A stretch of 64,000 bases of DNA from Fidelibacterota bacterium (GTDB lineage: Bacteria > Pseudomonadota > Alphaproteobacteria > Rhodospirillales > Rhodospirillaceae): positions 6,507 to 70,506 of the forward strand of contig CANJPG010000006.1 in assembly GCA_947476065.1 (NCBI GenBank), in the 5' to 3' direction. Positions within the stretch are counted from its first letter, which is position 1, and each line of letters begins with the position of its first letter. Positions 21,938 to 44,634 of the stretch are shown here, piece after piece. The position numbers and the translations under genes were made by a program. A model generated the notes under the pieces. The model ran no database searches. It saw only the letters and a program-made list of their open reading frames with translations, and had not been told where the DNA came from.

Positions 21938-22713
21938 CGCCTGATACGGTAAACGACATGGGCGCTGGGGCGGCAACACAGCCCGGGTCCGACGCGGGCC
22001 TAGTGGTGCGCAATCTCGGCAAGCAGTTCAAGGGCCGGCCCGTGCTGCGCGATGTCAGCCTGTCGGTGAAGCGCGGCGAAGCCGTGGGCCTCTTGGGTCC
22101 GAACGGCGCCGGCAAGACCACGTCGTTCTATTGCGTCACCGGCCTCATCAGCCCCGACCAGGGCAAGATCTACCTCGACGGCCAGGACATCACGCCGCTG
22201 CCGATGTACCGGCGCGCGCGCCTGGGTATCGGTTATCTGCCCCAGGAAGCCTCGATCTTTCGCGGCATGACGGTTGAAGGCAACATCCGCGCCGTCGCCG
22301 AAGTCGTCGAGACCGACAAAGCTGCCCAGAGCGCGCTGGTCGATGCCCTGCTGCGCGAGTTCTCCATCGACCACCTGCGCCGCTCGCCGGCCCTGGCGCT
22401 GTCGGGCGGCGAGCGCCGCCGGTGCGAGATCGCCCGCGCCCTGGCCTCGCGGCCCAGCTTCATCCTGCTTGACGAGCCCCTGGCGGGCATCGATCCCATT
22501 GCTGTGGGTGAAATCCGCGAGATGGTCTCCCACCTCAAGGACCGCGGCCTTGGCGTGCTGATCACCGACCACAATGTCCGCGAGACCCTCGACATTATCG
22601 ACCGCGCCTACATCCTTCACGAGGGCACCGTACTGTTCGAGGGCAGCCCCTCTGAAATCGTGGCCCATGAAGGGGTTAGGCGCGTGTATTTGGGCGAACG
22701 ATTCAGCCTTTAG
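21934..22713 (+). CDS. lptB: LPS export ABC transporter ATP-binding protein LptB
   Basis: Walker A is GPNGAGKTT, the signature is LSGGERRR and Walker B is ILLDEP. It sits in the conserved position before rpoN. Confidence 0.92.
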   Translation: MTPDTVNDMGAGAATQPGSDAGLVVRNLGKQFKGRPVLRDVSLSVKRGEAVGLLGPNGAGKTTSFYCVTGLISPDQGKIYLDGQDITPLPMYRRARLGIGYLPQEASIFRGMTVEGNIRAVAEVVETDKAAQSALVDALLREFSIDHLRRSPALALSGGERRRCEIARALASRPSFILLDEPLAGIDPIAVGEIREMVSHLKDRGLGVLITDHNVRETLDIIDRAYILHEGTVLFEGSPSEIVAHEGVRRVYLGERFSL

Positions 22714-22848
22714 GCGACCGCGTCACCGAATTCTTAAACATTTTCCTTAAAAGTGGACCGGTTCTTGCATAAGCCGGTGCCTTCTGATTTCTAGGGGGCC
22801 GAGCTTTCGCAGATCAGTGCGGAAATCCCGAGCCGGTGACCCTTTTCC

Positions 22849-24357
22849 ATGGCCCTCGCGCCACGTTTAGACCTGAGGCAGAGCCAAAGCCTCGTCATCA
22901 CGCCCCAGCTCCAGCAGGCGATCAAACTGCTGCAGTTGTCGGCGATTGAGCTGGCGGAATACGTCGAGCAGGAACTCACCTCCAATCCACTTCTCGAAAC
23001 CGACGACGCCGGCGAGACCGGCGCGCTGACGGAAAGTGCCGGCAATGCCGATGATCGCCAGGGTGACGATCTGTCGGTGGTTGATGCCGTCGACGGCCAG
23101 ACCGATGCGCCTCTGGACGTGGAATCGTCCATATCCGACAGCAATTCGGCCCTGGGCGATGACGGCAGCGACCGGGGCGGCATGGATACCCACAACGCCG
23201 ACAATTGGAATGGCACCAGCATGTCGGGCGACATGCCCGATCTCGAGCGCACTTTGGCCGATACCCCCGACCTGCGCAGCCATCTCATTCAGCAGCTCAA
23301 TCTATCCGTGACCGCACCCGCCGAACGCTTCATCGGCGTGTTCCTCATCGATCAGCTCGACGAGAGCGGATACATGCGCATGAGTCTCGCCGACGCCGCC
23401 GAGCAACTCGGCACCGATGTGCCGCGCATCGAACGCGTGCTCGCCCTGCTGCAGCGCTTCGACCCCGCCGGGGTCTTCGCGCGCGACTTGAAAGAGTGCC
23501 TGCGTCTGCAGCTGGAGGACCGCAACCGCTTCGACCCGGCGATGGCGGCCTTCATCGCCAACATCGAATTGCTGGCGGCGCGCGACATCAAGAAGCTGCG
23601 CGAGATTTGCGCCGTGTCGATGGAAGACCTGCAGGACATGATCTCCGAGGTGCGCGCCCTCGACCCGAAGCCCGCCCTGAAATTTGAGCGCTCCATCACC
23701 GAAGCGGTGATCCCCGACGTCATCATGTCGCCGCGCCCCGACGGCAGCTGGCGGATCGAGCTTAATTCGGACACCCTGCCGCGCGTGCTCGTCAACCGCA
23801 GTTATATCAGCGATATCGGCCGCGGCGGTGTCACCAAAACCGACAAGGACTTCCTCGCCGAAAAGCTTCAGTCCGCCAATTGGCTGGTGAAGGCCTTGAA
23901 CCAGCGCGCGGAAACGATCCTGAAAGTGGCGACCGAACTCGTCAAACAGCAGGAGGCTTTCTTTCGTCTCGGCGTGCAGCACCTGCGCCCGCTGATTCTG
24001 CGCGATGTCGCCGACGCCATCGAGATGCACGAAAGCACCGTCAGCCGCGTGACCACCAACAAATACATGGCCACGCCGCGCGGCATCTTCGAGCTGAAAT
24101 ATTTCTTCACGCAAGGGTTGCCCTCGGCCCACGGCGCCGACGCGCATTCAGCCGAGGCTGTGCGCCACCGCATCAAGATCCTGATTGATAACGAAGCCTT
24201 GACCGACGTGCTGTCGGACGACCGCATCGTTGACATCCTGCGCACCGACGGCGTCGAGGTCGCCCGGCGCACTGTCGCGAAGTACCGGGATTCGCTCAAT
24301 ATTCCCTCCTCGGTTCAGCGGCGCCGCGACAAGGCGGCCGGCTACACCGGGCGTTAA
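22849..24357 (+). CDS. rpoN: RNA polymerase sigma-54 factor
   Basis: The N-terminus is MALAPRLDLRQSQSLVITPQLQQAIKLLQLS. An acidic region follows. The C-terminal RpoN box ARRTVAKYR is present. Confidence 0.95.
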   Translation: MALAPRLDLRQSQSLVITPQLQQAIKLLQLSAIELAEYVEQELTSNPLLETDDAGETGALTESAGNADDRQGDDLSVVDAVDGQTDAPLDVESSISDSNSALGDDGSDRGGMDTHNADNWNGTSMSGDMPDLERTLADTPDLRSHLIQQLNLSVTAPAERFIGVFLIDQLDESGYMRMSLADAAEQLGTDVPRIERVLALLQRFDPAGVFARDLKECLRLQLEDRNRFDPAMAAFIANIELLAARDIKKLREICAVSMEDLQDMISEVRALDPKPALKFERSITEAVIPDVIMSPRPDGSWRIELNSDTLPRVLVNRSYISDIGRGGVTKTDKDFLAEKLQSANWLVKALNQRAETILKVATELVKQQEAFFRLGVQHLRPLILRDVADAIEMHESTVSRVTTNKYMATPRGIFELKYFFTQGLPSAHGADAHSAEAVRHRIKILIDNEALTDVLSDDRIVDILRTDGVEVARRTVAKYRDSLNIPSSVQRRRDKAAGYTGR

Positions 24358-24375
24358 TATCTCGACCCTCAATTC

Positions 24376-24404
24376 TTGACTTCCCGGGGGGTCGCGCCTA
24401 TGTT
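24376..24404 (+). promoter_or_regulatory. sigma70-like promoter candidate in the rpoN-ptsN gap (TTGACT-N17-TATGTT)
   Basis: The hexamers were read from the sequence. It lies 235 nt upstream of the ptsN start. Confidence 0.3.
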
Positions 24405-24639
24405 CCGCCACCTTTTGAAAGGCCTGCGGCACGCGCTGCGCCGCCCGCCATTTTCGGCTACCGGTTTCTTGGGCGTCATCATTGTATGACGGGGGAGACG
24501 CGGCACTAGCCGATGCGACAGTGAACAAAAATAACGGTCGAGTTTATCGTCTCGTATGAAATCGGTTTTGTCCGCATCCAGTTCACGCTTGCCCCGCCGG
24601 CGAACGCTAGCTTTTGGTACGGCGGCTTAAGGGCGCGAC

Positions 24640-25101
24640 ATGGAAATCAGTGATCTCATCAAACCCGAAGCGGTGATTTCGGGCCTGAAGGCTAGCAGCA
24701 AAAAGCAAGGGATGCAGGAACTCGCGCGCCATGCCGCGCAGATCACTGGCGTCAACGACAAGAAGATTTTCGAAACGCTGCTGGAGCGCGAACGCCTGGG
24801 CACAACCGGCGTCGGCAACGGCATTGCGATTCCGCACGGCAAGCTGCCCGAGTTCAAGCGTCTGTACGGCGTCTTCGCCAAACTCGACAAGCCGATCGAT
24901 TTTGACGCCATCGACGAACAGCCCGTCGATTTGATCTTCCTGCTGCTGGCGCCCGAGGGCGCCGGGGCTGACCATCTCAAGGCGCTGGCCCGTGTTTCGC
25001 GCCTTCTGCGCGATGCCCGCACCTGTGAAAAACTGCGCGGCACTAATACCGCCGATGGCCTTTACATGCTGCTGATCCAGTCGGAAGCGCAGGCCGCCTA
25101 G
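24640..25101 (+). CDS. ptsN: PTS IIA-like nitrogen regulatory protein PtsN (EIIA-Ntr)
   Basis: 153-aa ORF. The phosphorylatable His lies in the context GVGNGIAIPHGKL. It sits in the conserved location downstream of rpoN. Confidence 0.9.
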   Translation: MEISDLIKPEAVISGLKASSKKQGMQELARHAAQITGVNDKKIFETLLERERLGTTGVGNGIAIPHGKLPEFKRLYGVFAKLDKPIDFDAIDEQPVDLIFLLLAPEGAGADHLKALARVSRLLRDARTCEKLRGTNTADGLYMLLIQSEAQAA

Positions 25102-27907: not shown

Positions 27908-28043
27908 GCCCCGGCCTACGGCCATGGGATTTGGCGTTTTGCCGAACGTTAAGGAATTTGTTACACCCTTCGGGGACTAAGAGTACCCGCTTCCATTGGG
28001 GGATAGGGGTCGCTAGCCACGGAACGGAGTGGGGACAACCAGA

Positions 28044-29765
28044 ATGGCAGTCCTCGGACGCGCAACATTTGAAATCCAGCTCTACAAGGGCGGACGGTGG
28101 GCCATTTTCGAGGTGGTGCCGACGGAGGAAACCGCGCGCCATAAGGCCGCCGACCTCCTGGCCATGAAGACCACCGAGGGCGTGCGCATCATCAAGGAAT
28201 CGCGCTTCGGCAGCGACTCCCGCCGTGAGTCGGAAATCTTCTGCCAGATGAAGGCGACCGAAAAGGGCGACGACTTCAGCATCACGCCGGTTGATGCAGC
28301 CCCGCTCTGTGAAAAGGTCACCGACTATTATCAGACCGCCGCGCGCACGACGATGGCGCGGCTGTTCACCAAATACCTCGAAAAGCAGGAGCTGACGCCG
28401 TTCGAGCTGCTGCATAGCCACAAAAATCTCAAGCGCATGCTCAACCTCGACAGCATGGTGCCGTCGGCGGTAGACAAAATTGCCCAGCTGCATGCACGCG
28501 TCTCCAATGGCGATGCACGCAAGCGCCGCGACGTCATCTATGCCGCCGTCGATTCCATCGCCAAGCGCGCCCGCGAAGTTGATAGCAAGGAGCTGCCTGA
28601 GCTCAAGGGTAGTACGCTCGACGAACTGCTGCGCCGCATCGACGCACGCTACACCGACGCCGAGGAGCGCAATTACCTAGCGCACGTTGCCTTCGTCCGC
28701 CAATCGATCAATTGGACGGGATGGCTCGGAAAGATGAGCGAACTGCTGCCCATGGCGCAGTCGCAGAAGGACGAACGCGCGCGGGCGATGGTCGACGAGA
28801 TGCTGTCCGACATCTTTGTTGCGAAAACCGTGATCAAGGATGTCATCGGCGTGTCCAAGCACTTGGGCGACGCGGTGATGCGCATCCTCGATTTGATGGA
28901 AGGCAAGTGCAAACCCACCAAGTTCGCCGTCGAGGAACTGGTCGCGCTGCTCAATGAGCTTTTCGCGGCCAACCTGCTGCCGCGTTCGAAGAAGGTTTTG
29001 CTGGACCGCCTCGAACGCGATCTGTCCAGCGCGGTGCGTCTCACCAACAGTGAAGACATCGCTCCCGACAAGGTGTTTTTCGACACCGTGCTCGACCGCG
29101 TCATCACCGATCACGGCATGATCGGTGGCAGCGCCGTGGCGATTGGCCTGACAGAGCGCTGGGCGCGCTTGAACAACATCGGCGGCCCCACCGGCCGCAA
29201 GCGCGCCATGGAAGGCGTGCGCGACAAACTCATGTCGGGCAAACGCAAGTTCATCTATCTGCTGGCGATGTACGACCCCAACGGCACGCCCGACATGAAG
29301 GCGCTCATCGAAAGCCAAGTGCGTGACCTCGGCGGCCAGCTGAACACCATCCAGAAAATCGCGCCCGAGGCGCGCACGGAAAAGACGCGGTTGCAGGAAG
29401 TCGCCGGCATGCAGCGGTTGGTGCTCGATTCAACACTGCCCGACCGCCTGCGCGATCCGGTCGCCGCCAAGTTCGACGAACTGGTGTCCGACTACATCAT
29501 CTCGCAGGGCGTCATCCAGCGCCTCGACGACGAACGCCTGGTTTTCCGCGAACGCGCTACGCGGGTCGTGACCTTCTGCGCCTCCGGTGTGCTGACCGTC
29601 GGACGCGCGACCACCATCGCGCGCGACAACGTTGTGTCCTACCTGCGCCGCAAGGACTTCATCTCTGAGTTCACCGCAGATATCCCCGATCCCGGCGACA
29701 AGGAAAAGGCGATCAAGGAGTTCTACGGCCTGCTCGCAAAAACCGGCTTCGACGTCAGGGGCTAA
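28044..29765 (+). CDS. large (about 573 aa) mostly helical protein of unknown function
   Basis: It is a long uninterrupted GC3-rich ORF with no motif I can assign. The ATG at 28044 is preferred over the GTG at 28029. Confidence 0.6.
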   Translation: MAVLGRATFEIQLYKGGRWAIFEVVPTEETARHKAADLLAMKTTEGVRIIKESRFGSDSRRESEIFCQMKATEKGDDFSITPVDAAPLCEKVTDYYQTAARTTMARLFTKYLEKQELTPFELLHSHKNLKRMLNLDSMVPSAVDKIAQLHARVSNGDARKRRDVIYAAVDSIAKRAREVDSKELPELKGSTLDELLRRIDARYTDAEERNYLAHVAFVRQSINWTGWLGKMSELLPMAQSQKDERARAMVDEMLSDIFVAKTVIKDVIGVSKHLGDAVMRILDLMEGKCKPTKFAVEELVALLNELFAANLLPRSKKVLLDRLERDLSSAVRLTNSEDIAPDKVFFDTVLDRVITDHGMIGGSAVAIGLTERWARLNNIGGPTGRKRAMEGVRDKLMSGKRKFIYLLAMYDPNGTPDMKALIESQVRDLGGQLNTIQKIAPEARTEKTRLQEVAGMQRLVLDSTLPDRLRDPVAAKFDELVSDYIISQGVIQRLDDERLVFRERATRVVTFCASGVLTVGRATTIARDNVVSYLRRKDFISEFTADIPDPGDKEKAIKEFYGLLAKTGFDVRG

Positions 29766-29824: not shown

Positions 29825-30604
29825 CTAAGTCAGAGATTGCTGCGCATCATCGCGGAACGTCCCGGCGATGAAATGATCCCGCAACGCGTGGCGCAGATCA
29901 AAAGCGGCAGCGATGCGCACCGCGCTATCAGCTGCTTCGCCCAACGTCCCGCCATTCGCGATCGCCGTTAAAAACGCCCTATCACCGGCTGCGATGGCGC
30001 GCGTGGCGACATGATGATCCTTGCGCGTGATGATCACCGTTTCGGCGACACCCAAATCAATCTCCGGCACGGCGGCGACCTCGGGCTGGTTGACCTGCCA
30101 GATGCGCTGGATCGGAAACGCCGACGCAACCAGACGTGATGCCGGATGCAGGTGTAGCCGAGTGGTCTCTATGTCTTCGGGCGGCAGGGCCGCGAGACGT
30201 GCAAAGTCGAGCGCCGGCGCATCGGCTGCAAAATAAGCTTCCGCCCGCGCCCACTCCAGCCGCGCGACATCAGCCAGGTAAGGCAAACGCTGCCCAATGT
30301 CGGCGTGCGCGATGAAAGCGGCGAACGCGCCGCCGTAGGCCGAAAGCTGCGGCACAGAAGGTGGCGCGGCGACGACAAAGCGGTCGGCGAGCTGCGCGAA
30401 AATGGCTTCACCGACAATGCGCCGGCTCACTGGGTAGGCCGCCGCCAACACCTCCACCAGACTGCGGCGCACGGTATGGCGGTGTACCGCGACGCGGGCC
30501 GCGATGTTTTCATCCGCCCGCAACAACGCGCCCAGCGCCCCATCCCCGCTCCCCAGCACGGCTGCACGGAACCGGCTTTGCATATCGCGCAGCTCAAGCG
30601 GCAT
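29825..30604 (-). CDS. bufC: DUF2063-family protein (MbnC/BufC-like partner of the DUF692 enzyme)
   Basis: It lies directly downstream of the DUF692 gene. The start at 30604 (MPLELRDMQSRFRAAVLG) gives an 11-nt overlap with the bufB stop. The N-terminal helical region is typical of DUF2063. Confidence 0.7.
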   Translation of the reverse strand: MPLELRDMQSRFRAAVLGSGDGALGALLRADENIAARVAVHRHTVRRSLVEVLAAAYPVSRRIVGEAIFAQLADRFVVAAPPSVPQLSAYGGAFAAFIAHADIGQRLPYLADVARLEWARAEAYFAADAPALDFARLAALPPEDIETTRLHLHPASRLVASAFPIQRIWQVNQPEVAAVPEIDLGVAETVIITRKDHHVATRAIAAGDRAFLTAIANGGTLGEAADSAVRIAAAFDLRHALRDHFIAGTFRDDAQQSLT

Positions 30605-31433
30605 GGGGTCGCCCCCCGGCCCGTTGGTCAAGTATGACCTGCGCCGCATGGGCTTCGCCCAACAGGACGCTGATCTCTGGAACATCGCGGTCCCATTCGA
30701 TCAGCGTCGGTCGCGCGCCGATGCGGGCGATGGTGTCGGCGTAAAGCGCCCAGACCGCGTCGCTCACGCGCGCATCGTGCGTATCGATCAGCATTCCATT
30801 TGCAACGCTGTGTCCGGCAAGATGGATTTCACTGATCGCCATGGTCGGCAGTGCGCGCAAATATGCCGCCGCATCGCCGCCGGTATTCGCGGCGCTCACA
30901 TAGACATTGTTGATATCCAATAAGATGCCGCAGCCGGTGCGCTCTACCAGCCGTGTCAGGAATTTGGCTTCGCCCATTGTCTCATCGGCGAAGGCAATAT
31001 AGGCCGACGGATTCTCGACCAGAATGCGCCGTCCGAAACTGTCCTGGGCCGCGGCGACATTGGCCGCGACGATATCGAGGACGCGTTCGGTATAGGGCAG
31101 GGGCAATAGGTCGTTGAGATAAGCACCGCCTGTGCTGCTCCAGGCCAGGTGCTCTGAGATCAGCCCGGGCTGGACGCGGGCAAACAGCTTTTTCAGCCGC
31201 GCGAGATGGGCTGGGTCGAGGCCGTCGGCAGATCCCAATGACAAGCCGACGCCGTGGCAGCTCAGCGGATACTGTGCGACGACGGCGTCAAGCATGGCCA
31301 ATCGCGGGCCGCCGTCACATAAAAACGTCTCGCTGTGGATTTCGAGCCATGGGGCAGTCGGCGAGTCTTCAGCAGCGAACGCCGCCAGATGCGCTGTCCG
31401 CAATCCGATGCCGGCGGCCTGCGGAATCTCCAC
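30594..31433 (-). CDS. bufB: DUF692-family MNIO enzyme (MbnB/BufB-like, TIM-barrel)
   Basis: 279-aa ORF with GIGLRTAHL, WLEIHSETF, LISEHLAWS, ILVENPSAYI, LLDINNVYVSA, EIHLAGH, IDTHD and TLIEWD. This pattern is as I recall it for UPF0276/DUF692 proteins. Confidence 0.85.
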   Translation of the reverse strand: MEIPQAAGIGLRTAHLAAFAAEDSPTAPWLEIHSETFLCDGGPRLAMLDAVVAQYPLSCHGVGLSLGSADGLDPAHLARLKKLFARVQPGLISEHLAWSSTGGAYLNDLLPLPYTERVLDIVAANVAAAQDSFGRRILVENPSAYIAFADETMGEAKFLTRLVERTGCGILLDINNVYVSAANTGGDAAAYLRALPTMAISEIHLAGHSVANGMLIDTHDARVSDAVWALYADTIARIGARPTLIEWDRDVPEISVLLGEAHAAQVILDQRAGGRPHAA

Positions 31434-31456
31434 GCCACCATCCTTGCACGCCTCGC

Positions 31457-31801
31457 TCAGGTCGCGTCCTTGGTGGGCGCCGGCGTGGCTGCCGGGGCTG
31501 TGGCCGGCGGGTCATCGAAGGCCGCCAGCTTGCCGCCCATCTTCACGCAGCTGCCCGCGTCCACCAGCATCCATTCCTGGCCACTGTTGTCGATGGTCGA
31601 AAGCCCGCCGCAGGTGTGGCTGCCGTTGGCGGCGGCGCAGCCGTTCTCGCCGGCCTTGGCGACGCCGTAGCACTGCTCTTTGCCTTTGGCCTGTTGGGCC
31701 TCGGGCATGGTGCCGGCGGGGCCCTTGCCGGCGTCGAGCGCAACCGCGCCGGCAATTGCGGCAGCGCCGACCACGGCGGCAGCCAGAATTTTCTTGTCCA
31801 T
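31457..31801 (-). CDS. bufA: DUF2282-type RiPP precursor (bufferin-like): signal peptide + four-Cys core + Pro/Ala-rich tail
   Basis: The start at 31801 has AGGA 6 nt upstream. The protein reads MDKKILAAAVVGAAAIAGAVA..EQCYGVAKAGENGCAAANGSHTCGGLSTIDNSGQEWMLVDAGSCVKMGG. It lies immediately upstream of the DUF692 gene. Confidence 0.8.
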   Translation of the reverse strand: MDKKILAAAVVGAAAIAGAVALDAGKGPAGTMPEAQQAKGKEQCYGVAKAGENGCAAANGSHTCGGLSTIDNSGQEWMLVDAGSCVKMGGKLAAFDDPPATAPAATPAPTKDAT

Positions 31802-31983
31802 GGGCATTCCTAAAATCCGCGAAATGACGGCTATCATAAACCAGACGCAGCGCTTTTAGAATCACGCGCCCGCGAGCCCGGTTGCTCTAAGCGAGCGTAT
31901 TGCTGCATTTTCGGTCCGCCTGCAATATTTGTAATATTCGGTGAATTGACCCTTGCCGCCCTTGTGGGGGAGAACCCGTTGCC

Positions 31984-33747
31984 ATGCAGCATGCCCCTGA
32001 CGCAGCGCCCGTTTTGCGCCCGACCCCCAGCGATACGCCCAGCTTGCCCAAGCGGTTGGCCGACTTTGCAACCCTCAGCGAAGCCTTGGATTACGCCGGG
32101 AAAAGCGACACCGGATTCAACTTCTATTCGGCACGCGGCGAGCTTGAGAAAGTGCTGCCATTCCGCGACCTGCGCGACCAGGCCGCCAGCCATGCCCGGC
32201 GCCTGGCCGCAGCCGGGCTCAAGCCTGGTGACCGGGTTGCTTTGCTGGCCGCTACGGCGCCTGAATTCCTGATCCTGTTTTTCGCCTGCCAATACGCCGG
32301 GCTCATTCCCGTGCCTATGCCGCTGCCGACCGCTTTCGGGCGGCGCGAAGCTTACATCGATCAAATCAAAGGCCAGATGCTGTCCTCGGGCGCGCGCATG
32401 GCCTTGGGTCCCGCCGAGTTCCTGCCCTTTGTGCATGAAGCGGCGGCGGGCCTGCCGATCCAGCTTATCGGAACGCTGGCCGATGTCGCGGCTTTGCCGG
32501 AAGGCAACGGCGAGCTGCGCCCCGGCGGCACCGACGATCTCTCCTACATTCAATACAGCTCCGGCTCGACGCGGTTTCCCATGGGTGTGATGGTGACGCA
32601 TAAGAGCCTGCTCGCGAATTGTCATGCCATGAATAAGTACGGCATCGACAATCGGCCCGGCGAACGCGCCATGTCCTGGCTGCCGTTCTTCCACGACATG
32701 GGCCTAGTGGGTTTCATGCTGGGCGGCGTCACCAGCCAGTCGTCGATCGACTATCTCAGCACAGAGGATTTTGCGCGCCGTCCACTGACTTGGCTGAAGA
32801 TCATCAGCGATAACGGCGCTTCGCTGTCTTATGCGCCATCGTTTGGCTACGAGCTTTGCGCGCGGCGTGTCTCCAACATGGCCGAAGGTGCGCTGGATCT
32901 TGACCTCTCGAAGTGGCGCGTCGCTGGCATTGGCGGCGAGATGATCAAGCCAAAAGTCATGCAAGCCTTCGCTGCCGCCTTCAAGCCATATGGATTTTCG
33001 GACAAAGCCTTCTGCGCCAGCTATGGCCTTGCAGAATCTACGCTGGCGGTCAGTTTTGCGCCCGTCGGCACCGGCATCAAAGCCGATCACGTCGATAAAG
33101 CCGCCCTCGAAGCCCATCGCGCCGATCCGGTCGCGGAATCCGAAGGCCGCACCTTCGTCTCCTGCGGCCGCGTGTTGCCCGCGCACAGCGTCGAAGTACG
33201 CGACGAGGCCGGCGCTGTTCTCGGCGCGCGCCAAGTGGGCCGTGTGTTTGTGGCTGGCCCCAGCATCATGCAGGGCTACTTCAATAGTCCTGCGGAGACC
33301 GCCGAATGTCTGCAGAACGGCTGGCTCGACACCGGCGATCTTGGCTATTGGCTGGATGATGAAATCGTCATCGTTGGCCGCGCCAAGGATATGATGATCA
33401 TCAACGGCCGCAACGTCTGGCCCCAGGACATTGAGTGGACTGTGGAACACATCGACGGCCTTAAGTCCGGCGACAGCGCCGCCATTCTGCTGGCCGACGC
33501 CGACGGTGTCGAACGTCCCACCATTCTCGTACAATGCCGCCCGTCCGATCCGGCCGAGCGCGCCCGCGTCGCCGCCGACGTGCGCGCCCGCGTGCAGGAA
33601 GCCGTCGGCATTGCCTGTGACGTCGTGCTGGTGCCGGCGCGCAGCCTGCCCAAGACGACCTCCGGCAAACTCGCCCGCGGTCGCGCCAAGACCATGTTCA
33701 TCGCCGGCGCAATCCCGGTGCTCCCGGCTACGCCACCGGCCGCGTAA
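31984..33747 (+). CDS. fatty-acyl-AMP ligase / acyl-ACP synthetase-type adenylating enzyme
   Basis: 587-aa ORF with YIQYSSGSTRFPMGVMVTH, WLPFFHDMGLVG (FAAL-like) and GWLDTGDLGY..GRAKD. It is the first gene of the four-gene operon ending in spt. Confidence 0.85.
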   Translation: MQHAPDAAPVLRPTPSDTPSLPKRLADFATLSEALDYAGKSDTGFNFYSARGELEKVLPFRDLRDQAASHARRLAAAGLKPGDRVALLAATAPEFLILFFACQYAGLIPVPMPLPTAFGRREAYIDQIKGQMLSSGARMALGPAEFLPFVHEAAAGLPIQLIGTLADVAALPEGNGELRPGGTDDLSYIQYSSGSTRFPMGVMVTHKSLLANCHAMNKYGIDNRPGERAMSWLPFFHDMGLVGFMLGGVTSQSSIDYLSTEDFARRPLTWLKIISDNGASLSYAPSFGYELCARRVSNMAEGALDLDLSKWRVAGIGGEMIKPKVMQAFAAAFKPYGFSDKAFCASYGLAESTLAVSFAPVGTGIKADHVDKAALEAHRADPVAESEGRTFVSCGRVLPAHSVEVRDEAGAVLGARQVGRVFVAGPSIMQGYFNSPAETAECLQNGWLDTGDLGYWLDDEIVIVGRAKDMMIINGRNVWPQDIEWTVEHIDGLKSGDSAAILLADADGVERPTILVQCRPSDPAERARVAADVRARVQEAVGIACDVVLVPARSLPKTTSGKLARGRAKTMFIAGAIPVLPATPPAA

Positions 33748-34697
33748 TGGCACTCCCCGTCGTCGCGGTCACGGGTGCGACCGGCTTCATCGGCCGGCGC
33801 ATCGTGCGCGCGCTGGTGGACTACGGCTGCGACGTGCGCGCACTGGCGCGGCGCACTTCGGCCCTCGCACAGGAGGAAACCACCGATGCGGTCACCTGGG
33901 TGATCGGCTCTCTGACCGATGAAAACGCGCTGAACGCCTTGGTGAAGGACACCATCGCCGTCGTGCATTGCGCCGGCGCCATCAAGGCCCAGAACCGCGA
34001 CGCTTTTCTGGCCATCAATGGGGCGGGCACCCGCCGTCTGGCCGAGATCGCCGCCGCCCAACCGGTGCCGCCGCGTTTCATCCTATTGTCGTCGCTGGCC
34101 GCCCGCGAACCGCGGCTGTCGGCTTACGCAGCCAGCAAACGCGCCGGCGAGCAGGCCCTGCGCGGCCTCAAGGGCCGGCTGCCGTCGATCATTCTGCGCC
34201 CGCCCGCGGTCTACGGTCCTGGCGACCTGGAAACCCTCAAGGTCTTCCAGATGGCCGCCCGCGGCTTCATCGCCGCCCCCATGGTCGCGGGGGCCCGGGC
34301 GTCTTTGGTGCATGTGGACGACGTTGCCCGAGCGGTGCTGGCGGCCCTGGAACTCGACAGCCTCCCCGACCAGCCCATCGAGTTCGATGACGGCACCCCC
34401 GGCGCTTATAGCTGGGCCGAGATCGCCGCCGCCGCCGGCGCGGCCTTGCGCACCACCCCCCGCCTGATCCCAGTGCCGGCTCCAATCCTCTACCTGGCCG
34501 GAGCCCTGGCGAGCCTCTCAGCCGCTCTGACCCATCGGCCGGGGGTAATGTCCTGGGGCAAAGTGCCTGAATTACTGCATCCGGACTGGGTCGCCGCCGA
34601 TGGCCTATTCCCGGGCTATAAGCCCCTCTGGGATATAGAAAAAGGCTTTAAAGATGCGGTCACCTGGTACACCTCACGGGGCCTGTTAACATCGTAA
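33747..34697 (+). CDS. NAD(P)-dependent extended SDR (candidate ceramide/3-ketosphinganine reductase)
   Basis: The Rossmann motif is VAVTGATGFIGRRIV and the catalytic motif is YAASK. Its start overlaps the stop of the preceding gene. The functional assignment rests on gene context only. Confidence 0.7.
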   Translation: MALPVVAVTGATGFIGRRIVRALVDYGCDVRALARRTSALAQEETTDAVTWVIGSLTDENALNALVKDTIAVVHCAGAIKAQNRDAFLAINGAGTRRLAEIAAAQPVPPRFILLSSLAAREPRLSAYAASKRAGEQALRGLKGRLPSIILRPPAVYGPGDLETLKVFQMAARGFIAAPMVAGARASLVHVDDVARAVLAALELDSLPDQPIEFDDGTPGAYSWAEIAAAAGAALRTTPRLIPVPAPILYLAGALASLSAALTHRPGVMSWGKVPELLHPDWVAADGLFPGYKPLWDIEKGFKDAVTWYTSRGLLTS

Positions 34698-34818
34698 CGG
34701 CTGAGTTGATTTGTAACCTTTTCGTCATTCCCCCACTCTGAGCCTTAGCACCTGCAACATAATTGCCGTTTCGAAGCGCAGGGGCGGACGAGGAACGTTT
34801 CAGGATGGGGTTTAGGAC

Positions 34819-35076
34819 ATGAGTGGCGGCACGGAGCCGTCGGCCGAAACCCTCACGGCGCTCTACGACATCCTGGAGACGTTCAACAAGACCGGCGCCG
34901 CGTTCGCGCCGGGGACCCGGTTCAGCGAAGACCTGAACTTTGATTCCCTGGTCGTGATGGAGTTCGTGGCCGTTGTTGAGGATGCCTTCGATATCTCGAT
35001 ACCCCTCAACATCCTGCCGGACATTGCGACGATTAAGGACTTGGCGGTGGCGGTCGAAAAGATCGTCGCTGAATAG
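34819..35076 (+). CDS. dedicated acyl carrier protein
   Basis: 85-aa acidic ORF with the phosphopantetheine Ser motif LNFDSLVVMEFV. Confidence 0.8.
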   Translation: MSGGTEPSAETLTALYDILETFNKTGAAFAPGTRFSEDLNFDSLVVMEFVAVVEDAFDISIPLNILPDIATIKDLAVAVEKIVAE

Positions 35077-35125
35077 ACCACCGGCTCCGGATCGAGTTTT
35101 GGTTCAATTGTTAGAGGACTAATAC

Positions 35126-36370
35126 ATGGCCGCTTTGTTTGACCGCTTCGCTCCCTTGATGGCGCAACGCGACGCTATGCTCGGCGACGGCGGCGTCAAT
35201 CCGTTCAAAGTGAAGATGGATCAAGTCCTCTCGCAGACCGAAGCCATCATCGCCGGCCGTCACACCATCCTCGTCGGCACCAACAATTACCTCGGCCTGA
35301 CCTTCGCACCCGAAGCTTTGAAAGCCGCGCATGACGCGCTCGAAGCTTGCGGCACCGGCACCACCGGCAGCCGCGTCGCCAACGGCACCTATCACGGCCA
35401 CAAAGAACTCGAAGACGCGCTGTGCGATTTCTTCGGCAAAGAACACGCCATGGTCTTCTCGACCGGCTTCCTGGCCAATCTGGGCATCCTGTCAACGCTG
35501 ATGGGCCCCGAAGACTACATCCTGATGGACGCCGATTGTCATGCCTCGATCTACGACGGCGTGCGCGGCAGCTCCGCCCAGATCATCCGCTTTAAGCACA
35601 ATGACGCTGGCGATCTCGACAAGCGCTTGGGCCGTCTGGCCGACAAGCCGGGCAACAAGCTGATCGTCATCGAAGGCATCTACTCGATGCTCGGCGATAA
35701 AGCGCCTTTGGCCGAGATCGTCGCGGTGAAGAAGAAATACGAAAACGTCTACCTGCTCTCGGACGAAGCCCACTCGGTCGGCGTGCTCGGCAAGTACGGC
35801 CGCGGCCTGCCCGAAGAAGTCGGCTGCGAAGACGACGTCGACTTTATTGTCGGCACGTTCTCGAAGTCGGTTGGCACCGTCGGCGGCTTCTGTGTCTCCA
35901 ATCACCCGGATTTCGACACCCTGCGTCTGGTCACTCGCGCTTATATCTTCACCGCCTCGCTGCCGCCCTCCGTGGTGGCCTCGGCGACCGTCAACCTCGG
36001 TCTCGTGCGCAACGGCGGCGCCCTGCGCAAGCGCCTCATGCGCAATGCCCAGCATCTACACGCCGGCCTCACCGCCTTGGGTCTAAAGGTCGCCAGCGAG
36101 AACAGCCCGGTTGTCGCCGTCGTCACCCCTGATCCGCAGGTCGCCCTGATGTTCTGGCGCGGCCTCATCGAAGCTGGCGTTTACGTCAACCTCGCCCTGC
36201 CGCCGGCGACGCCTTACGGTTACTCGTTGCTGCGCGCCAGCCTCTGCGCCGCCCACACCGAAGAGCAACTCGACAAGGTCATCGCGATTTTCGCAGAAGT
36301 TGCGGCCAAGGTCGGGGTCATCGCCCCGGTCGAAAGCCTGCCGGTCCGCAAGCGGAGCGCCGTCGCCTGA
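35126..36370 (+). CDS. spt: alpha-oxoamine synthase, serine palmitoyltransferase-like
   Basis: 414-aa ORF. PLP-Lys lies in the context GTFSKSVGTVGG, with SDEAHSVG also present. The Spt call (versus BioF/Kbl) rests on the ACP/FAAL/SDR operon context. Confidence 0.75.
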   Translation: MAALFDRFAPLMAQRDAMLGDGGVNPFKVKMDQVLSQTEAIIAGRHTILVGTNNYLGLTFAPEALKAAHDALEACGTGTTGSRVANGTYHGHKELEDALCDFFGKEHAMVFSTGFLANLGILSTLMGPEDYILMDADCHASIYDGVRGSSAQIIRFKHNDAGDLDKRLGRLADKPGNKLIVIEGIYSMLGDKAPLAEIVAVKKKYENVYLLSDEAHSVGVLGKYGRGLPEEVGCEDDVDFIVGTFSKSVGTVGGFCVSNHPDFDTLRLVTRAYIFTASLPPSVVASATVNLGLVRNGGALRKRLMRNAQHLHAGLTALGLKVASENSPVVAVVTPDPQVALMFWRGLIEAGVYVNLALPPATPYGYSLLRASLCAAHTEEQLDKVIAIFAEVAAKVGVIAPVESLPVRKRSAVA

Positions 36371-36393
36371 TATATTAAGGTTTTGTGGCCATC

Positions 36394-36424
36394 AACGCCG
36401 GGATTAGTCCCGGCGTTTTTGTTT
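36394..36424 (+). terminator. rho-independent terminator after spt
   Basis: The hairpin AACGCCGGGA-TTAG-TCCCGGCGTT is followed by TTTTTGTTT, 24 nt after the spt stop. Confidence 0.8.
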
Positions 36425-36434
36425 GTGCTAAAAC

Positions 36435-36899
36435 ATGGTCTCGATAATCAGCGCGGGAGCATCGCTGATGATGACGGCTTTTCTCGACCAGATCAGCGCT
36501 CGACTGACGGCCACGGGCATACCCGCCCAGCTGATCGAGGAAGCCTATGATCCGTCGCAGCCGCACCACGGCACGCTTATTTTCCAGGCCGACTGTTTGA
36601 CTCTGCGCTTCACACGCGATCACGGGCAAGATTTTCTCGACATCGCGACGGCCTTGGCGCCGCGCGAATTTTATTGGTTCGGCGACATCGAGGTGGCGAT
36701 GGGATGGGGGTCGCTGGAACGCATTTTATCGCGTGCCGCCGCGCCGCCGATCGATGAGGTCATCAACCGGCTCGGCCAGCATGTCGCCGAGCTGAGAAAA
36801 GCCTTCTTCAAGAATATCGATCATTTCACCCACGCCCGGATCGCGCGCACCATGCGCCGCCCGGATAGCCGCACCCACAGCAGCAGGCCAACGCCTTAG
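36435..36899 (+). CDS. hypothetical protein (154 aa)
   Basis: The ORF has coding-like GC3 bias and no recognisable motif. The start is uncertain (36435 or the internal ATGATG). Confidence 0.4.
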   Translation: MVSIISAGASLMMTAFLDQISARLTATGIPAQLIEEAYDPSQPHHGTLIFQADCLTLRFTRDHGQDFLDIATALAPREFYWFGDIEVAMGWGSLERILSRAAAPPIDEVINRLGQHVAELRKAFFKNIDHFTHARIARTMRRPDSRTHSSRPTP

Positions 36900-37801
36900 C
36901 GTAGGCCCCCGCGGCGCACGGTCTTCAGCAGAAGGCGAGCGCCCGTGCGCAAAGGGCGTTTGCGTTCGGCTTCGGTCAGCTCGATCTTGACGCCTGAGTG
37001 GCGCTCGATCTTCCAGGTCGCATAATCAAGTCCGCCCTGGAACGTGAAGGCTGCTTTGATCAGCCGCAGCACATTTAAAGTCTTTCCCTGAATGCGCCGC
37101 AGACGCCAGGCCGTCGCCGCGCGCTGCAGGTCATCCGCTGTGCCCGGTTGATAGGGCGCCGCGCCAAGCGCCGCGCCCGTGATGGCCTCGTAGCGCGCGA
37201 GATCGGCGTCCACCAGTTCGATACACTTGGTTTCTTTTTCCGGCCGCAGTTCGGCCCGATAGGTTTCGGCGAAGGCCCTGACCCACAGATCGCGCGCGGT
37301 ATAGGCGCCGCTCATCAAGGGCTGCACATTCATCATCGTGGTGCGCACCGCACTGGCCAGGCCGTCGGTCAATCTGCGCCGGACTTCCGGGTTGCGGGCA
37401 TACACAATCGCCGCTGGCTGAGCGAAGCGCGCCCATAGGCTCGAGGCGAAGCTGTCAGGTCCGACGCCATGCACAAACTGTTCCACGGAAATCAACGCCA
37501 CCTTGGCGCGCAACTTGCGGCCCTCGAAATCCATCTCGTGATAGTAGACATTTGGCGGCAATAAGCGGGCGAAAGCCGCAGACGTAAAGCTGCGCAGCGC
37601 TTCGGCATAGCGGTCCACCAGTACATAGAAATCTAGCAGCAAGCCCATGTCGGTCTTCTGGCGCAGGCACGAGCCGTAGAAAATGACGCCCGCGCTGGAC
37701 CGACCGTAATGATCCACAAGATGCGCGGCGAAGGCTTTGGCGGCCGCAAAAGTGTCGCGGTCGGCTTCGGCGGTGATCAGGGTGTCCAGATGATTGCTCA
37801 T
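36896..37801 (-). CDS. uncharacterised 301-aa protein translationally coupled to the lipid kinase (possible nucleotidyltransferase-like N-terminus)
   Basis: An ATGA overlap with the upstream kinase gene lies at 37798-37801. The N-terminal VIFYGSCLRQKTDMGLLLDFYVLVD is reminiscent of nucleotidyltransferase-fold/Tam41-like proteins. That resemblance is weak and judged by eye. Confidence 0.55.
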   Translation of the reverse strand: MSNHLDTLITAEADRDTFAAAKAFAAHLVDHYGRSSAGVIFYGSCLRQKTDMGLLLDFYVLVDRYAEALRSFTSAAFARLLPPNVYYHEMDFEGRKLRAKVALISVEQFVHGVGPDSFASSLWARFAQPAAIVYARNPEVRRRLTDGLASAVRTTMMNVQPLMSGAYTARDLWVRAFAETYRAELRPEKETKCIELVDADLARYEAITGAALGAAPYQPGTADDLQRAATAWRLRRIQGKTLNVLRLIKAAFTFQGGLDYATWKIERHSGVKIELTEAERKRPLRTGARLLLKTVRRGGLR

Positions 37802-38778
37802 GCCGGAAGCCTGATGAAGTTCAGCCGATGATTGCCGTCGAGTTCCAGCGGCTGTTCGGAACTGGCCTCATACAACTCGCCGTCCAGCGTGTAGGCGCCG
37901 GTGAAACGCAGCGTGATGCGGTCCATGCGCCGCACGGTGCGCCCGGCTCCCGAGGTGATCCGACGGTGCATCAACGCCGGCAGCATGCCCGCAATCGGCC
38001 GCAGGCCCGCGCGCAGGCTGATGTAGTGCAAGGGCTCGGCCCCGTCATCGGATGCGGTCGCCGGCTGCAGGCCTAGCAAAAGCTCGTCCAAAGCCGTCAC
38101 CGCCACGGCGAAAAAATTGCCCTGCTCGACGACATCGCGGCCGTCGCTGATGTGCACCGCGCCACGGTCGCCGCGCGCCAGAAGCCCCCGCCACAGCAGC
38201 ACGCTCATAGCTGCCATGTGGCTGAGCGTATTGGGCAGCTTCAGCGGATAGATATGCCGGCGGCAAAAATGAATCCCGTCGACGATTTCCGCCGCGCCGA
38301 AAAATGCGCCGTACAGCGGCGGCATGGCCGCGTTCTGGCGCAGGGCCAGGACCGGGCGGTTGACGATGTGGCGGGCCAGCGTGCCGTCGCGCCGGCTTTG
38401 CAGCACGCGCGCGAGCGCGGCCTCAGGCGTGCCGGTCAGGCTCCAGCCCGCCGTGGTCATGTTGGTCTTGCCGGCCGGCAGCAGGGCCAGCGCCGGCAGC
38501 GCGCCATAGGCGCTGCTATTCAGCAGGGCGGCGAACACCAGATCGGCGGTACCATCGCCTCCGTTGACGGCGATGGTCTGGGCACCGAAGGCCGCACTTT
38601 GTCTGACGGCGTCCGCCACCTGATCGGCGCGGTCGATCTGCACGTGCACCACATTGACTTCAGCTGACAGCATGGGGTCGACCCAATTGTCCCCGCGCAG
38701 ATTACGGGTGCTTCCGCGGTTGGTGATGACGGCAAGGGGTGTCACGGGATGAGGTGTCGCGCTGTGGTTTGAGGTCAA
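37798..38778 (-). CDS. diacylglycerol/sphingosine-kinase-family lipid kinase (candidate ceramide kinase)
   Basis: The DAGK catalytic-domain signature is IAVNGGDGTADLVFAALL. The protein is about 326 aa with a TTG start. The ceramide specificity is inferred from the neighbourhood. Confidence 0.75.
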   Translation of the reverse strand: MTSNHSATPHPVTPLAVITNRGSTRNLRGDNWVDPMLSAEVNVVHVQIDRADQVADAVRQSAAFGAQTIAVNGGDGTADLVFAALLNSSAYGALPALALLPAGKTNMTTAGWSLTGTPEAALARVLQSRRDGTLARHIVNRPVLALRQNAAMPPLYGAFFGAAEIVDGIHFCRRHIYPLKLPNTLSHMAAMSVLLWRGLLARGDRGAVHISDGRDVVEQGNFFAVAVTALDELLLGLQPATASDDGAEPLHYISLRAGLRPIAGMLPALMHRRITSGAGRTVRRMDRITLRFTGAYTLDGELYEASSEQPLELDGNHRLNFIRLPA

Positions 38779-38950
38779 ATGCTGTGTGGCGCAGAGGTTT
38801 TAACAGCCTACGCTATATCCTTAACGTGTTGGGATGGTATGAAAAAGCCCCACTGGCTCCCCCGGACCGCCTCGCCTACACTCCCGAGTGTTAAGGCTGC
38901 TCGCGACGGGGGTGCGGGGGGCTCGCCCGACCCTTGCCGGCAGTGGATAT

Positions 38951-40210
38951 ATGATTAAAGCCATCGACCGCTACCTCCTGCGTCAAATCGTGCCGACGAT
39001 CGTGGTGATCCTGTTCATCGCCGCGGTCATCCTGTGCATGGAACGTCTGATGCGCCTTCTGGACATCGCGGTCGGCAACGGCGTCTCGACGCTGGTTGTC
39101 TTCCAGATGTTGTTCTATCTCATTCCTTATTACATCAGCCTGGCACTGCCCATGGCGCTGTTCCTGGGCGTGCTCTTGGCCTTCCGCAAGCTCTCGGCCC
39201 AGTCGGAGCTGGACGCCATCCACTCCTGCGGCATCGGTATGGGTCGATTTATCCGTTCGGCCCTGGTGCTGGCGGTCTTCATGATGGGCGTCAACCTGCT
39301 GCTCACCGGCTACATCCAGCCCTATACGCGCTATCTGTTTCGCGCGGTGATGTTCAACATCACCTCCGGCGTCATCGAGCAGGGCATCGGCGAGGGCGTG
39401 TTCATGAGCCTGCCCAACGGCTACACCCTGCGCGTCGAGCAATCGCGCGGCGGCGGACGCGAGCTGTACGGCGTCTTCGCCCACAAGCAGGAAGACGACG
39501 GCCATATCGTCACGCTCACCGCCAAGCGCGGCGAACTGCTGACCGGCGCCATGGAAGGTACGGTCTCCTTGCGCCTCTACGAAGGCAACCGCTCGGAGTG
39601 GGACCCGGCCACCAAGGCCCCCTCGACGCTGCAGTTCGACGTCTTCGACTGGCCGTTGAACCTGTCCGACCTCGTGCGTTTTCGCGGCCGCGGCGGCGAC
39701 GAGCGCGAGTTGACCCTGGTGGAGCTCATGCGCGGCTATCGCATCAATCTGCTGGCGGGCCGCCACGGCAATATCGCCGAGGTCAATCCAAAACCCGACA
39801 AACCGCCCGAAGAGGTTATAGCTCCCTCCGCCGTGGCATCGGAGTTTCACTTCCGCCTGGTGTTCTCGCTGTCGATGCTGCTGCTGCCGATCCTGGCCGC
39901 GCCCCTTGGAATCATGACCAACCGCGCCAGCCGCTCCTTCGGGCTGATCTTCGGGCTCTTGATCCTAGTCAGTTATCACAAAGTCCTGGAATTCACCGGC
40001 GCCTACGCGGCCACCACCGGTGCGCCGGCGGGTCCCTTGCTGTGGACCGTCTTCGCCATCTTCACGGTTGCCACGTTCTATTTATTCTACCGCACGGAAA
40101 GCAAAGCCGGGACGCCGCCGGTCCTGTTGATGGAAGCGCGATGGATCGCCTTCACCGATCGTATCGTCGCGGTATTCCGCCCCAACCGTGCCGCGCCCGG
40201 CACAAGATGA
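38951..40210 (+). CDS. lptF: LPS export ABC transporter permease LptF
   Basis: The internal start MIKAIDRYLLRQIVPTIVVILF is a typical LptF/G N-terminus. It is a six-TM YjgP/YjgQ-type protein followed by lptG. Confidence 0.85.
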   Translation: MIKAIDRYLLRQIVPTIVVILFIAAVILCMERLMRLLDIAVGNGVSTLVVFQMLFYLIPYYISLALPMALFLGVLLAFRKLSAQSELDAIHSCGIGMGRFIRSALVLAVFMMGVNLLLTGYIQPYTRYLFRAVMFNITSGVIEQGIGEGVFMSLPNGYTLRVEQSRGGGRELYGVFAHKQEDDGHIVTLTAKRGELLTGAMEGTVSLRLYEGNRSEWDPATKAPSTLQFDVFDWPLNLSDLVRFRGRGGDERELTLVELMRGYRINLLAGRHGNIAEVNPKPDKPPEEVIAPSAVASEFHFRLVFSLSMLLLPILAAPLGIMTNRASRSFGLIFGLLILVSYHKVLEFTGAYAATTGAPAGPLLWTVFAIFTVATFYLFYRTESKAGTPPVLLMEARWIAFTDRIVAVFRPNRAAPGTR

Positions 40211-40220
40211 GCCTTTCCAT

Positions 40221-41297: not shown

Positions 41298-41351
41298 GCG
41301 GGCTTATATACCTGCAGCGGCAGGCCTTTGTGGCCTTAAGGCGGGGCAGCG

Positions 41352-42164: not shown

Positions 42165-42171
42165 CCCCGGC

Positions 42172-43323: not shown

Positions 43324-43572
43324 ATGCTAGCCGCGTTTTTCCGGCTGTTTGTGTTTGTCGTCGTACTGGCCGCATTGGGCCTTCTGTTCTTCTACGCCTT
43401 CATCGCCGCCTTGATCATCACGCCAATCTTGTTCGTGCTGTTCTGGCTGTTCGGCCGCAAGCCGGTGGTGCAGTGGGTGGTGCGCACCGGTCCCCGGGCC
43501 GGCGCGGGCCAGGGACCGATCATCGACCACGATCCCAATGCCTTCCCGCCCCGGGATCAGGACCCCGCCTAG
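43324..43572 (+). CDS. 82-aa two-TM membrane protein
   Basis: Its start directly abuts the preceding stop (TAGATG). It has a strongly hydrophobic N-terminal 45 aa and a Pro/Gly-rich tail. Confidence 0.45.
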   Translation: MLAAFFRLFVFVVVLAALGLLFFYAFIAALIITPILFVLFWLFGRKPVVQWVVRTGPRAGAGQGPIIDHDPNAFPPRDQDPA

Positions 43573-44522: not shown

Positions 44523-44634
44523 TACGGCCTCTCTGTTACAGACGCCAGTTTACCAAGCGGCACGCGCCTGTTCTATAGCCGCCCGCTGATCTATGCTTAA
44601 CTGCTCTATGCTTAAGGCCAAGCTGAAGGAGACG

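Follow-up and report, generated by a model that had tools for sequence, protein, structure and literature searches.

The locus considered here lies in a stretch of DNA 64 kb in length (64,000 nucleotides; hereafter, the window) and consists of three tightly packed minus-strand genes, bufA, bufB and bufC (Table 1). A check of the open reading frames places all three exactly where, and on the strand on which, the initial annotation had put them, and the packing that it described is likewise as claimed: bufB lies downstream of bufA across a gap of 23 nt, and bufB and bufC overlap by 11 nt, an overlap that is also present in four related loci (L016, L017, L019 and L021). All three reading frames are intact and have good ribosome-binding sites, that of bufA being AGGAA, 6 nt 5' of the ATG. 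Independent gene calls on six public contigs with an identical locus agree on the limits of all three genes, and the identical locus occurs in at least 17 metagenome contigs. Taken at the level of protein families, the gene trio is supported as a Buf1-type bufferin gene cluster, with a predicted DUF2282 precursor, an MNIO and a DUF2063 partner.

Table 1 Features of the buf locus, in positions of the window
Feature	Position	Strand	Basis
bufA, Buf1-type (DUF2282) bufferin precursor, 114 aa	31457..31801	-	PF10048
Predicted Sec signal peptide, BufA residues 1–21, MDKKILAAAVVGAAAIAGAVA	31739..31801	-	Sequence inspection
Conserved bufferin core, about BufA residues 42–91	31529..31678	-	Pfam match, residues 41–91
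Low-complexity Pro/Ala/Thr-rich C-terminal tail, BufA residues 92–114, LAAFDDPPATAPAATPAPTKDAT	31460..31528	-	Outside Pfam match
bufB, MNIO/DUF692 multinuclear non-haem iron oxidase, 279 aa, GTG start	30594..31433	-	NF050167, PF05114
bufC, DUF2063-domain MNIO partner protein, 259 aa	29825..30604	-	PF09836
bufA upstream region expected to hold the promoter	31802..31920	-	Position

The next gene (28029–29765, plus strand) is convergent, its distance to the stop codon of bufC being 59 nt, and it matches no model of Pfam or NCBIfam. Divergent from the buf genes is an operon encoding a fatty acyl-AMP ligase (FAAL; NF006624, 781 bits), an epimerase-type reductase, an ACP and a serine palmitoyltransferase; the match of the latter to NF047599 (606 bits, cut-off 500) bears out the earlier description of this neighbour as a ceramide operon.

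Precursor, enzyme and partner protein

The initial annotation took the 114-aa product of bufA for a DUF2282 precursor with four Cys, an assignment to be dropped if no match to that family emerged. The match is found, at 67 bits against a cut-off of 22.4 (PF10048, DUF2282/BufA1; E=1.5e-18), and spans profile positions 1–52 of 53. The four Cys, at residues 44, 55, 64 and 85, are invariant in an alignment of 54 BufA homologues, as are E42, G46, N53 and G90, and PF10048 is present in all 112 homologues found. Viewed by eye, the N-terminus has a basic n-region (KK), a 16-residue hydrophobic stretch and an A-x-A motif (AVA before Leu22), with neither a lipobox Cys nor a twin-arginine motif; on such inspection, cleavage of a signal peptide after AVA is probable. 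Modification in Buf1 affects the central Cys, while a disulphide joins the outer pair (PMC12452194). By homology, Cys55 and Cys64 are the predicted thiooxazole sites, and Cys44–Cys85 is the predicted disulphide. An AlphaFold2 model of BufA, based on 54 homologues, is of only moderate quality, with low values for loop residues 51–70; its mean pLDDT of 61 is too low for comparisons of fold to be meaningful. A search of solved structures with BufA returned only noise.

The C-terminal tail of BufA has no predicted secondary structure. Its P/A/T content is 59%, and it is both longer and P/A/T-richer than the tails of most relatives. It had been listed as an unusual feature, a view that does not hold, in that variable low-complexity tails are typical of the closest BufA relatives: among the homologues, tails at the same position vary in length and sequence. 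Such hypervariability among close relatives is as would be expected of an unconstrained linker.

The same check on the 279-aa product of bufB yielded matches to PF05114 (DUF692; E=9e-101) and, above the cut-off of 310, to the NCBIfam equivalog NF050167 MNIO_BufB (361.9 bits). The DUF692 motif set ascribed to this gene is in place: EHLAW (residue 94), VENPS (139), LDINN (172), HLAGH (204), IDTHD (216) and IEWD (245). Alignment with the DUF692 structure of PDB entry 3bww gives E=1.8e-34, and with MbnB structures 1e-10 to 5e-9. Nine residues (H60, H95, E140, D173, N176, H204, D217, H219 and E246) are invariant in six orthologues and, wherever the alignments cover them, coincide with identical residues of the MbnB and DUF692 structures. 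These nine residues are putative iron ligands, in line with the ligand set of the MbnB structures.

The third product matches PF09836 (DUF2063) over residues 8–98 (E=1.7e-19, 70.3 bits, cut-off 27.2), in keeping with its description as a DUF2063-like protein whose gene overlaps bufB. Its match to the HvfC model is weak (55.6 bits, below the cut-off of 142). A C-terminal RRE-like domain was sought in BufC, and Pfam gives no match beyond residue 98; searches of the PDB with the single sequence and with a 20-sequence profile returned zero relatives. Profile-HMM searches have thus matched the three proteins to the families named for them, DUF2282, DUF692 and DUF2063, with E-values that lie well outside the range of chance.

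Proposed pathway and nature of the product

Every sequence-level test that was run agrees with the core proposal of a bufferin-type operon (PF10048, NF050167, PF09836, the MbnB/DUF692 structure alignments and the invariant residues), and the bufferin literature on which that proposal drew exists and says what was attributed to it (PMC11626156; PMC12452194). In our opinion, the locus is very probably a functional Buf1-type bufferin (“captophorin”) biosynthetic operon, bufABC, for which the chemistry, export, disulphide, metal and physiological role are ascribed by homology. Translation would yield BufA as a precursor of 114 aa that begins with a Sec signal peptide. In the cytoplasm, BufB, together with its DUF2063 partner BufC, would oxidise Cys55 and Cys64 to 5-thiooxazole heterocycles, such heterocycles being installed broadly by partner-dependent MNIOs (bioRxiv 10.1101/2025.11.18.689057). 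The modified peptide would then be exported by Sec, the signal peptide would be removed, and Cys44 and Cys85 would form a disulphide. The resulting periplasmic product of ~93 residues would sequester copper and thereby protect from copper excess. The accessory DoxX gene would have been lost in this lineage, with the core pathway kept.

It is unlikely that the operon is functional and yet makes a product different from Buf1 of Caulobacter, be it one that carries an oxazolone-thioamide, binds another metal (Au, Hg, Zn or Ni), serves in redox or sulphur stress, or gains a property such as tethering or glycosylation from its tail. Gold (in the case of the gig operons) and mercury (through MerC fusions) have both been associated with operons of the bufferin type (PMC12452194); the window contains a CDF cation-efflux gene and a HupE/UreJ gene, neither adjacent to the buf genes; and the length and composition of the tail, noted above, could be read in the same sense. 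Moreover, thiooxazoles and oxazolone-thioamides are hard to tell apart even experimentally, according to one preprint (bioRxiv 10.64898/2026.06.05.730506). However, BufB scores above the cut-off of the BufB equivalog model, all partner-dependent MNIOs characterised to date install thiooxazoles and bind Cu (bioRxiv 10.1101/2025.11.18.689057), and the tail, as would be expected of an unconstrained linker, differs widely between close relatives in both length and sequence. A Buf1-like copper-binding product is the reading that we prefer.

Absence of DoxX, regulation and the sphingolipid neighbour

The observation that no DoxX gene follows bufC, and that the next gene is instead convergent, stands, and it extends to the whole window. 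Searches with two DoxX proteins from related loci (tblastn) found nothing there at E<=10, and Pfam scans covering the window's predicted genes, apart from the truncated gene at 1–2769 and a few short ORFs, turned up neither DoxX nor an ECF sigma factor nor NrsF. What does not stand is the view of this absence as unusual. By our own estimate, DoxX is absent from 19 of 64 informative related loci, which makes the arrangement frequent and recurrent, and Caulobacter can do without it (PMC11626156). In C. vibrioides, installing thiooxazoles and protecting the cell from copper takes BufA1, BufB1 and BufC1, which are both necessary and sufficient; deletion of doxX has no phenotype, with Buf1 still made, and the buf2 operon is naturally without DoxX (PMC11626156). 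Because the gene is dispensable there and missing from so many related loci, its absence from the window does not exclude membership in Buf1.

The distribution of DoxX points in the same direction. In one clade, the buf operon occupies the same chromosomal site throughout; one of its subclades has kept DoxX, the other has lost it. The BufB subclade of the window itself has nine members, none of which has the gene. Loss recurs independently in other clades, even between sister loci. This pattern supports the experimental conclusion that DoxX is accessory, rather than core, to bufferin biosynthesis. Nine diverged DoxX-less relatives, which belong to one BufB subclade and have BufB identities of about 55–67%, retain intact bufB and bufC in every case and bufA in eight (the exception is L028). 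Such retention argues for purifying selection on the genes.

Upstream of bufA, a scan for a sigma-70-like site found none, and the terminator scan produced hits at chance level only. SigF/NrsF regulators or a SigF-type promoter occur in some Buf1 clusters, as an accessory feature. The Caulobacter SigF-type motif GTAACC-N16-CGAA (PMC3511200) does not occur upstream of bufA, either here or in close relatives of the window, and gives only scattered single hits in other loci. Only short blocks in the bufA upstream region (CTCGC..GTGATTC and TATGAT) are common to three relatives. Among the window's genes, Pfam scans identified none for a metal-responsive regulator (such as SigF/NrsF or CueR). With neither a promoter nor a metal-responsive regulator found in the window, copper-responsive expression is therefore unsupported.

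These negative results, the absence of DoxX, and the case of L028, in which bufBC lies beside the lipid operon with no bufA between, would fit a decaying remnant, in which the lost DoxX would signal that the cluster has ceased to function or to be expressed. We consider this very unlikely. The reading frames are intact and have good ribosome-binding sites; conservation extends to the catalytic motifs and to all four Cys; the nine diverged relatives maintain the arrangement without DoxX, and at least 17 metagenome contigs carry the identical locus; and in the model system DoxX can be dispensed with (PMC11626156). The locus is better read as an operon that has probably kept its function.

The ceramide operon next to bufA had also been presented as unusual. 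That description does not survive comparison: the gene order is conserved in one alphaproteobacterial clade, and shared regulation is unsupported. The sphingolipid genes (Spt-ACP-reductase-FAAL) stand back to back with bufABC(D) in 13 non-redundant loci whose BufB is only 53–67% identical to that of the window, and LPS-transport (lpt) genes flank the region, as might be expected if bufferin were functionally or regulatorily coupled with outer-membrane lipid synthesis. Such coupling is nevertheless extremely unlikely. All 13 loci fall in a single clade of the BufB tree, so that shared ancestry suffices; in seven of them, FAAL and bufA are separated by one to four unrelated genes or by 1–3.6 kb; and the sole strongly conserved intergenic block stays with FAAL, not with bufA. 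In Caulobacter, judging by locus numbers, buf and ceramide genes do not adjoin each other, which also counts against coupling.

Two candidate signs of function were rejected in the course of the analysis. A conserved 30-nt block in the bufA–FAAL spacer was considered as a buf regulatory element and set aside because it lies beside FAAL even where other genes intervene before bufA. The number of residues after the fourth Cys of BufA (CysIV) has a median of 22 in DoxX-less loci versus 13 in loci with DoxX (Mann-Whitney p=4e-6); since one clade supplies most of the DoxX-less loci, no functional reading is given to this correlation.

A broader conjecture unites these features: the long-conserved position of a DoxX-less bufABC beside Spt-ACP-CerR-FAAL, in an lpt/rpoN outer-membrane neighbourhood, would reflect a functional link, and the P/A/T tail might in that case anchor the metallophore to the envelope, replacing the contribution of DoxX. 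We regard it as hardly credible. Examples of such a link would be a bufferin that shields envelope lipid or LPS biogenesis from copper, or co-regulated operons. If the tail or the linkage to the lipid operon did prove functional, bufferin biology would gain a new aspect; what was observed here points to neutral variation and to an inherited gene order.

Comparison with known systems

The bufferin family has already been described, and current Pfam and NCBIfam models would annotate the locus automatically. Buf1 clusters are known by the thousands, and the locus extends them to one more lineage of uncultured freshwater Alphaproteobacteria; beyond annotation, it matters little. A scan of genomes gave relatives with identities of at most 52%, in Sphingobium, Novosphingobium and alphaproteobacterial MAGs.

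The buf1 operon of Caulobacter vibrioides (bufA1B1C1D1, CCNA_03363-03366; Leprevost et al. 2024, PMC11626156) shares with the window its protein families, a four-Cys precursor and the order A-B-C. By homology, the predicted product is also alike, a periplasmic Cu-binding peptide with two 5-thiooxazoles and one disulphide. The window differs in having neither bufD (DoxX) nor a nearby sigF-nrsF pair, in a precursor whose N-terminal linker is longer and whose C-terminus is extended by a P/A/T-rich stretch, and in its context, which adjoins a sphingolipid operon. The buf2 operon of C. vibrioides (bufA2B2C2, CCNA_02999-03001) likewise consists of three genes in the order A-B-C without DoxX; its precursor is exported by Sec, and it contributes to protection from copper. 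However, the precursor of Buf2, a member of the BUF_6/12Cys family, contains six Cys, whereas BufA of the window has four Cys and scores 17.5 bits against the BufA2 model NF050166 (cut-off 60); it is not Buf2.

The gig operons of Cupriavidus metallidurans and Legionella pneumophila (DUF2282-DUF692-DUF2063-DoxX) encode the same Buf1-type families as the window and are now regarded as bufferin gene clusters (PMC12452194); unlike the window, they include DoxX, and they are induced by gold and copper. The “captophorins” oxazolin/HvfABC, fontiphorin and gonophorin resemble the window in pairing an MNIO with a DUF2063 (PME-type 1) partner; in these systems, Cys is converted to 5-thiooxazole and the products bind Cu (bioRxiv 10.1101/2025.11.18.689057). 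The precursors of these systems are EGKCG-repeat peptides rather than DUF2282 proteins, whereas BufA of the window is without EGKCG repeats, and BufB, at 228.7 bits against the HvfB model (cut-off 360), is not of the HvfB type. Methanobactin (MbnABC) is made by an enzyme of the same superfamily as BufB and is also a Cys-derived copper-binding RiPP, as is predicted for the product of the window. MbnB differs in having MbnC as its partner, where the window has a DUF2063 protein, and in acting on a short leader-dependent precursor to form an oxazolone-thioamide in a product that is secreted as a chalkophore; with 62 bits against the MbnB model TIGR04159 (cut-off 325), BufB of the window is not of the methanobactin type.

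Assignment of the buf operon

The three minus-strand reading frames proposed in the initial annotation were confirmed exactly in coordinates and strand (see the table), and gene callers picked identical limits for all three on six public contigs with an identical locus. An AGGAA ribosome-binding site lies 5' of the bufA ATG; neither a sigma-70-like site nor a SigF-type motif was found upstream of bufA, and no regulator gene was seen near the operon. Profile searches bore out the families suggested for the three products: BufA matches Pfam PF10048 (DUF2282, currently named BufA1; E 1.5e-18), BufC matches PF09836 (DUF2063; E 1.7e-19), and BufB, the DUF692/MNIO enzyme, matches PF05114 (E 9e-101) and the NCBIfam equivalog MNIO_BufB (361.9 bits; cut-off 310). 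Current Pfam and NCBIfam models would pick up this locus automatically. BufB scores below the HvfB (228.7 bits; cut-off 360) and MbnB (62 bits; cut-off 325) models and well under the cut-offs of ApyH and ChrH. It can be aligned to the solved DUF692 protein 3bww (E 1.8e-34), as well as to MbnB structures, and contains the motifs EHLAW, VENPS, LDINN, HLAGH, IDTHD and IEWD; six orthologues share H60, H95, E140, D173, N176, H204, D217, H219 and E246 without exception.

The four BufA cysteines are invariant in 54 homologues. Because it has four cysteines and scores under the cut-off of the BufA2 model (17.5 bits; cut-off 60), the precursor is of Buf1 type, not Buf2 type. This is a genuine bufferin operon of the Buf1 type, which very likely makes a Cys-modified periplasmic metallophore; we infer the chemistry, export and metal specificity of its product from homology.

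Coordinates of the buf genes and other features of the window
Feature	Position	Strand	Description
bufA	31457-31801	-	114 aa, starting MDKKILAAAVVGAAAIAGAVA; Cys 44, 55, 64, 85
bufB	30594-31433	-	279 aa; GTG start; 23 nt after bufA
bufC	29825-30604	-	259 aa; 11-nt overlap with bufB
Spacer block	31921-31950	+	30 nt, TGCAATATTTGTAATATTCGGTGAATTGAC; 33 nt upstream of the FAAL start codon
Convergent gene	28029-29765	+	573-578-aa predicted cytoplasmic protein; convergent with bufC; no Pfam/NCBIfam match
988-aa ORF	7210-10176	-	AMP-binding, PP-binding and weak C-terminal GDSL-lipase domains
tRNA-Leu(CAG)	7083-7169	+	adjoins the 988-aa ORF
CDF-family cation-efflux gene	43569-44522	-	
HupE/UreJ metal-transporter gene	16821-17558	+	

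Absence of DoxX and the C-terminal tail of BufA

The absence of a DoxX gene after bufC, noted initially, holds: the next gene is convergent, 59 nt away, tblastn found no DoxX across the 64-kb window, and Pfam scans of the window's predicted genes revealed no DoxX, ECF sigma factor or NrsF. Its description as unusual does not hold. Related loci were drawn from genomes, exact-protein look-ups and metagenomes and HMM-scored for BufA, BufB, BufC and DoxX; an adjacent DoxX is present in 45 of 64 informative, non-redundant loci and absent from 19, in a sample comprising close BufB relatives only and tilted slightly to DoxX-positive loci by the informativeness criterion. In a BufB neighbour-joining tree, all nine loci of the window's own subclade (the window, L016-L019, L024, L026, L028 and L033) are devoid of DoxX. 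In the sister subclade, DoxX occupies the same chromosomal site in L021, L030 and L035 and is missing from L031. Loss of DoxX is recurrent, because DoxX-less loci occur in separate places on this tree, some even as sisters of DoxX-positive ones (L006 and L004; L059 and L061).

The Pro/Ala/Thr-rich tail of BufA was likewise flagged as unusual, but a variable tail is typical of close relatives. No structure is predicted for residues 92-114, which the Pfam match does not cover; in a set of 112 homologues, almost every close relative has a low-complexity tail, differing in sequence and about 10-35 residues long, behind the conserved C-x-K-M-G-G-K-L-E-A-F segment. Within the locus set, the tail in the window is one of the longer ones and one of the richest in P/A/T (59%); it is one point on a continuum, and we read it as an unconstrained linker.

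BufA copy number varies among the closest relatives. Two tandem bufA genes are found in L019 (5001-5750), L024 (5699-6918) and L033 (6171-6952); in L028 (1-2565), bufBC directly adjoins the fatty acyl-AMP ligase (FAAL) gene with no bufA between. Two more distant BufA homologues have no adjacent MNIO: one stands alone beside inositol-phosphate/CDP-alcohol lipid genes (L020, 5001-5390), and the other, lacking bufB and bufC, has DoxX and MsrB (SelR) immediately downstream (L022, 5001-5713).

The sphingolipid neighbour and the wider window

The divergent operon was correctly recognised as a ceramide operon: it encodes FAAL (NF006624, 781 bits), an epimerase-type reductase, an ACP and serine palmitoyltransferase (Spt; NF047599, 606 bits, cut-off 500), the four gene types of the Caulobacter ceramide cluster. 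This neighbour is typical of the lineage rather than unusual, since 13 non-redundant loci, all within one BufB clade, repeat the order sphingolipid operon, bufABC(D), convergent ~573-aa protein gene, AMP-binding gene. In at least 10 related loci, the gene for the convergent protein keeps its place between bufC/DoxX and the AMP-binding gene.

The spacer block, which includes two AATATT hexamers, occurs unchanged in L016 and L017, whose proteins share only about 65% identity with those of the window, and is recognisable with 4-7 mismatches in seven further loci (L018, L019, L024, L025, L026, L028 and L033). Other genes separate FAAL and bufA in seven of the 13 loci; the block always lies beside FAAL. 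It probably serves the bacterial ceramide operon as an operator or promoter; no known regulator was found for it. The adjacency of buf and sphingolipid genes is inherited gene order, and the conserved spacer element belongs to the lipid operon.

The buf operon lies within an outer-membrane biogenesis neighbourhood (33747-45348 and 20235-25101), flanked on one side by lptC-lptA-lptB-rpoN-ptsN and on the other by genes for Spt, ACP, reductase, FAAL, a DAGK-type lipid kinase, lptF/lptG and a fatty-acid hydroxylase. The latter flank also encodes two proteins without a family match (301 and 154 aa) and one of 383 aa that is weakly GNAT-like; the ceramide synthase or head-group enzymes may be among the unassigned proteins. 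The CDF and HupE/UreJ genes are the only further metal-related genes seen in the window, and neither adjoins buf. The 988-aa ORF, in a lower-GC stretch (0.58) directly after tRNA-Leu(CAG), is a putative stand-alone adenylation-carrier-hydrolase protein.

Comparison with known bufferin systems

Work on Caulobacter vibrioides (Leprevost et al. 2024, PMC11626156) established that cysteines of a Sec-exported DUF2282 precursor are modified by BufB1 and BufC1, and that the product binds both Cu(I) and Cu(II) and confers protection against copper. In Buf1, modification falls on the central two cysteines, and the outer pair is joined in a disulphide; several gene organisations are listed for Buf1 clusters (2025 survey, PMC12452194). 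A 2025 preprint places every partner-dependent MNIO product in one group, the thiooxazole 'captophorins' (bioRxiv 10.1101/2025.11.18.689057). Deletion of C. vibrioides bufD1 (doxX) has no phenotype and maturation still occurs, and the buf2 operon of this species lacks DoxX (PMC11626156). The loss of DoxX in the window's lineage is old and stable, and fits this experimental dispensability.
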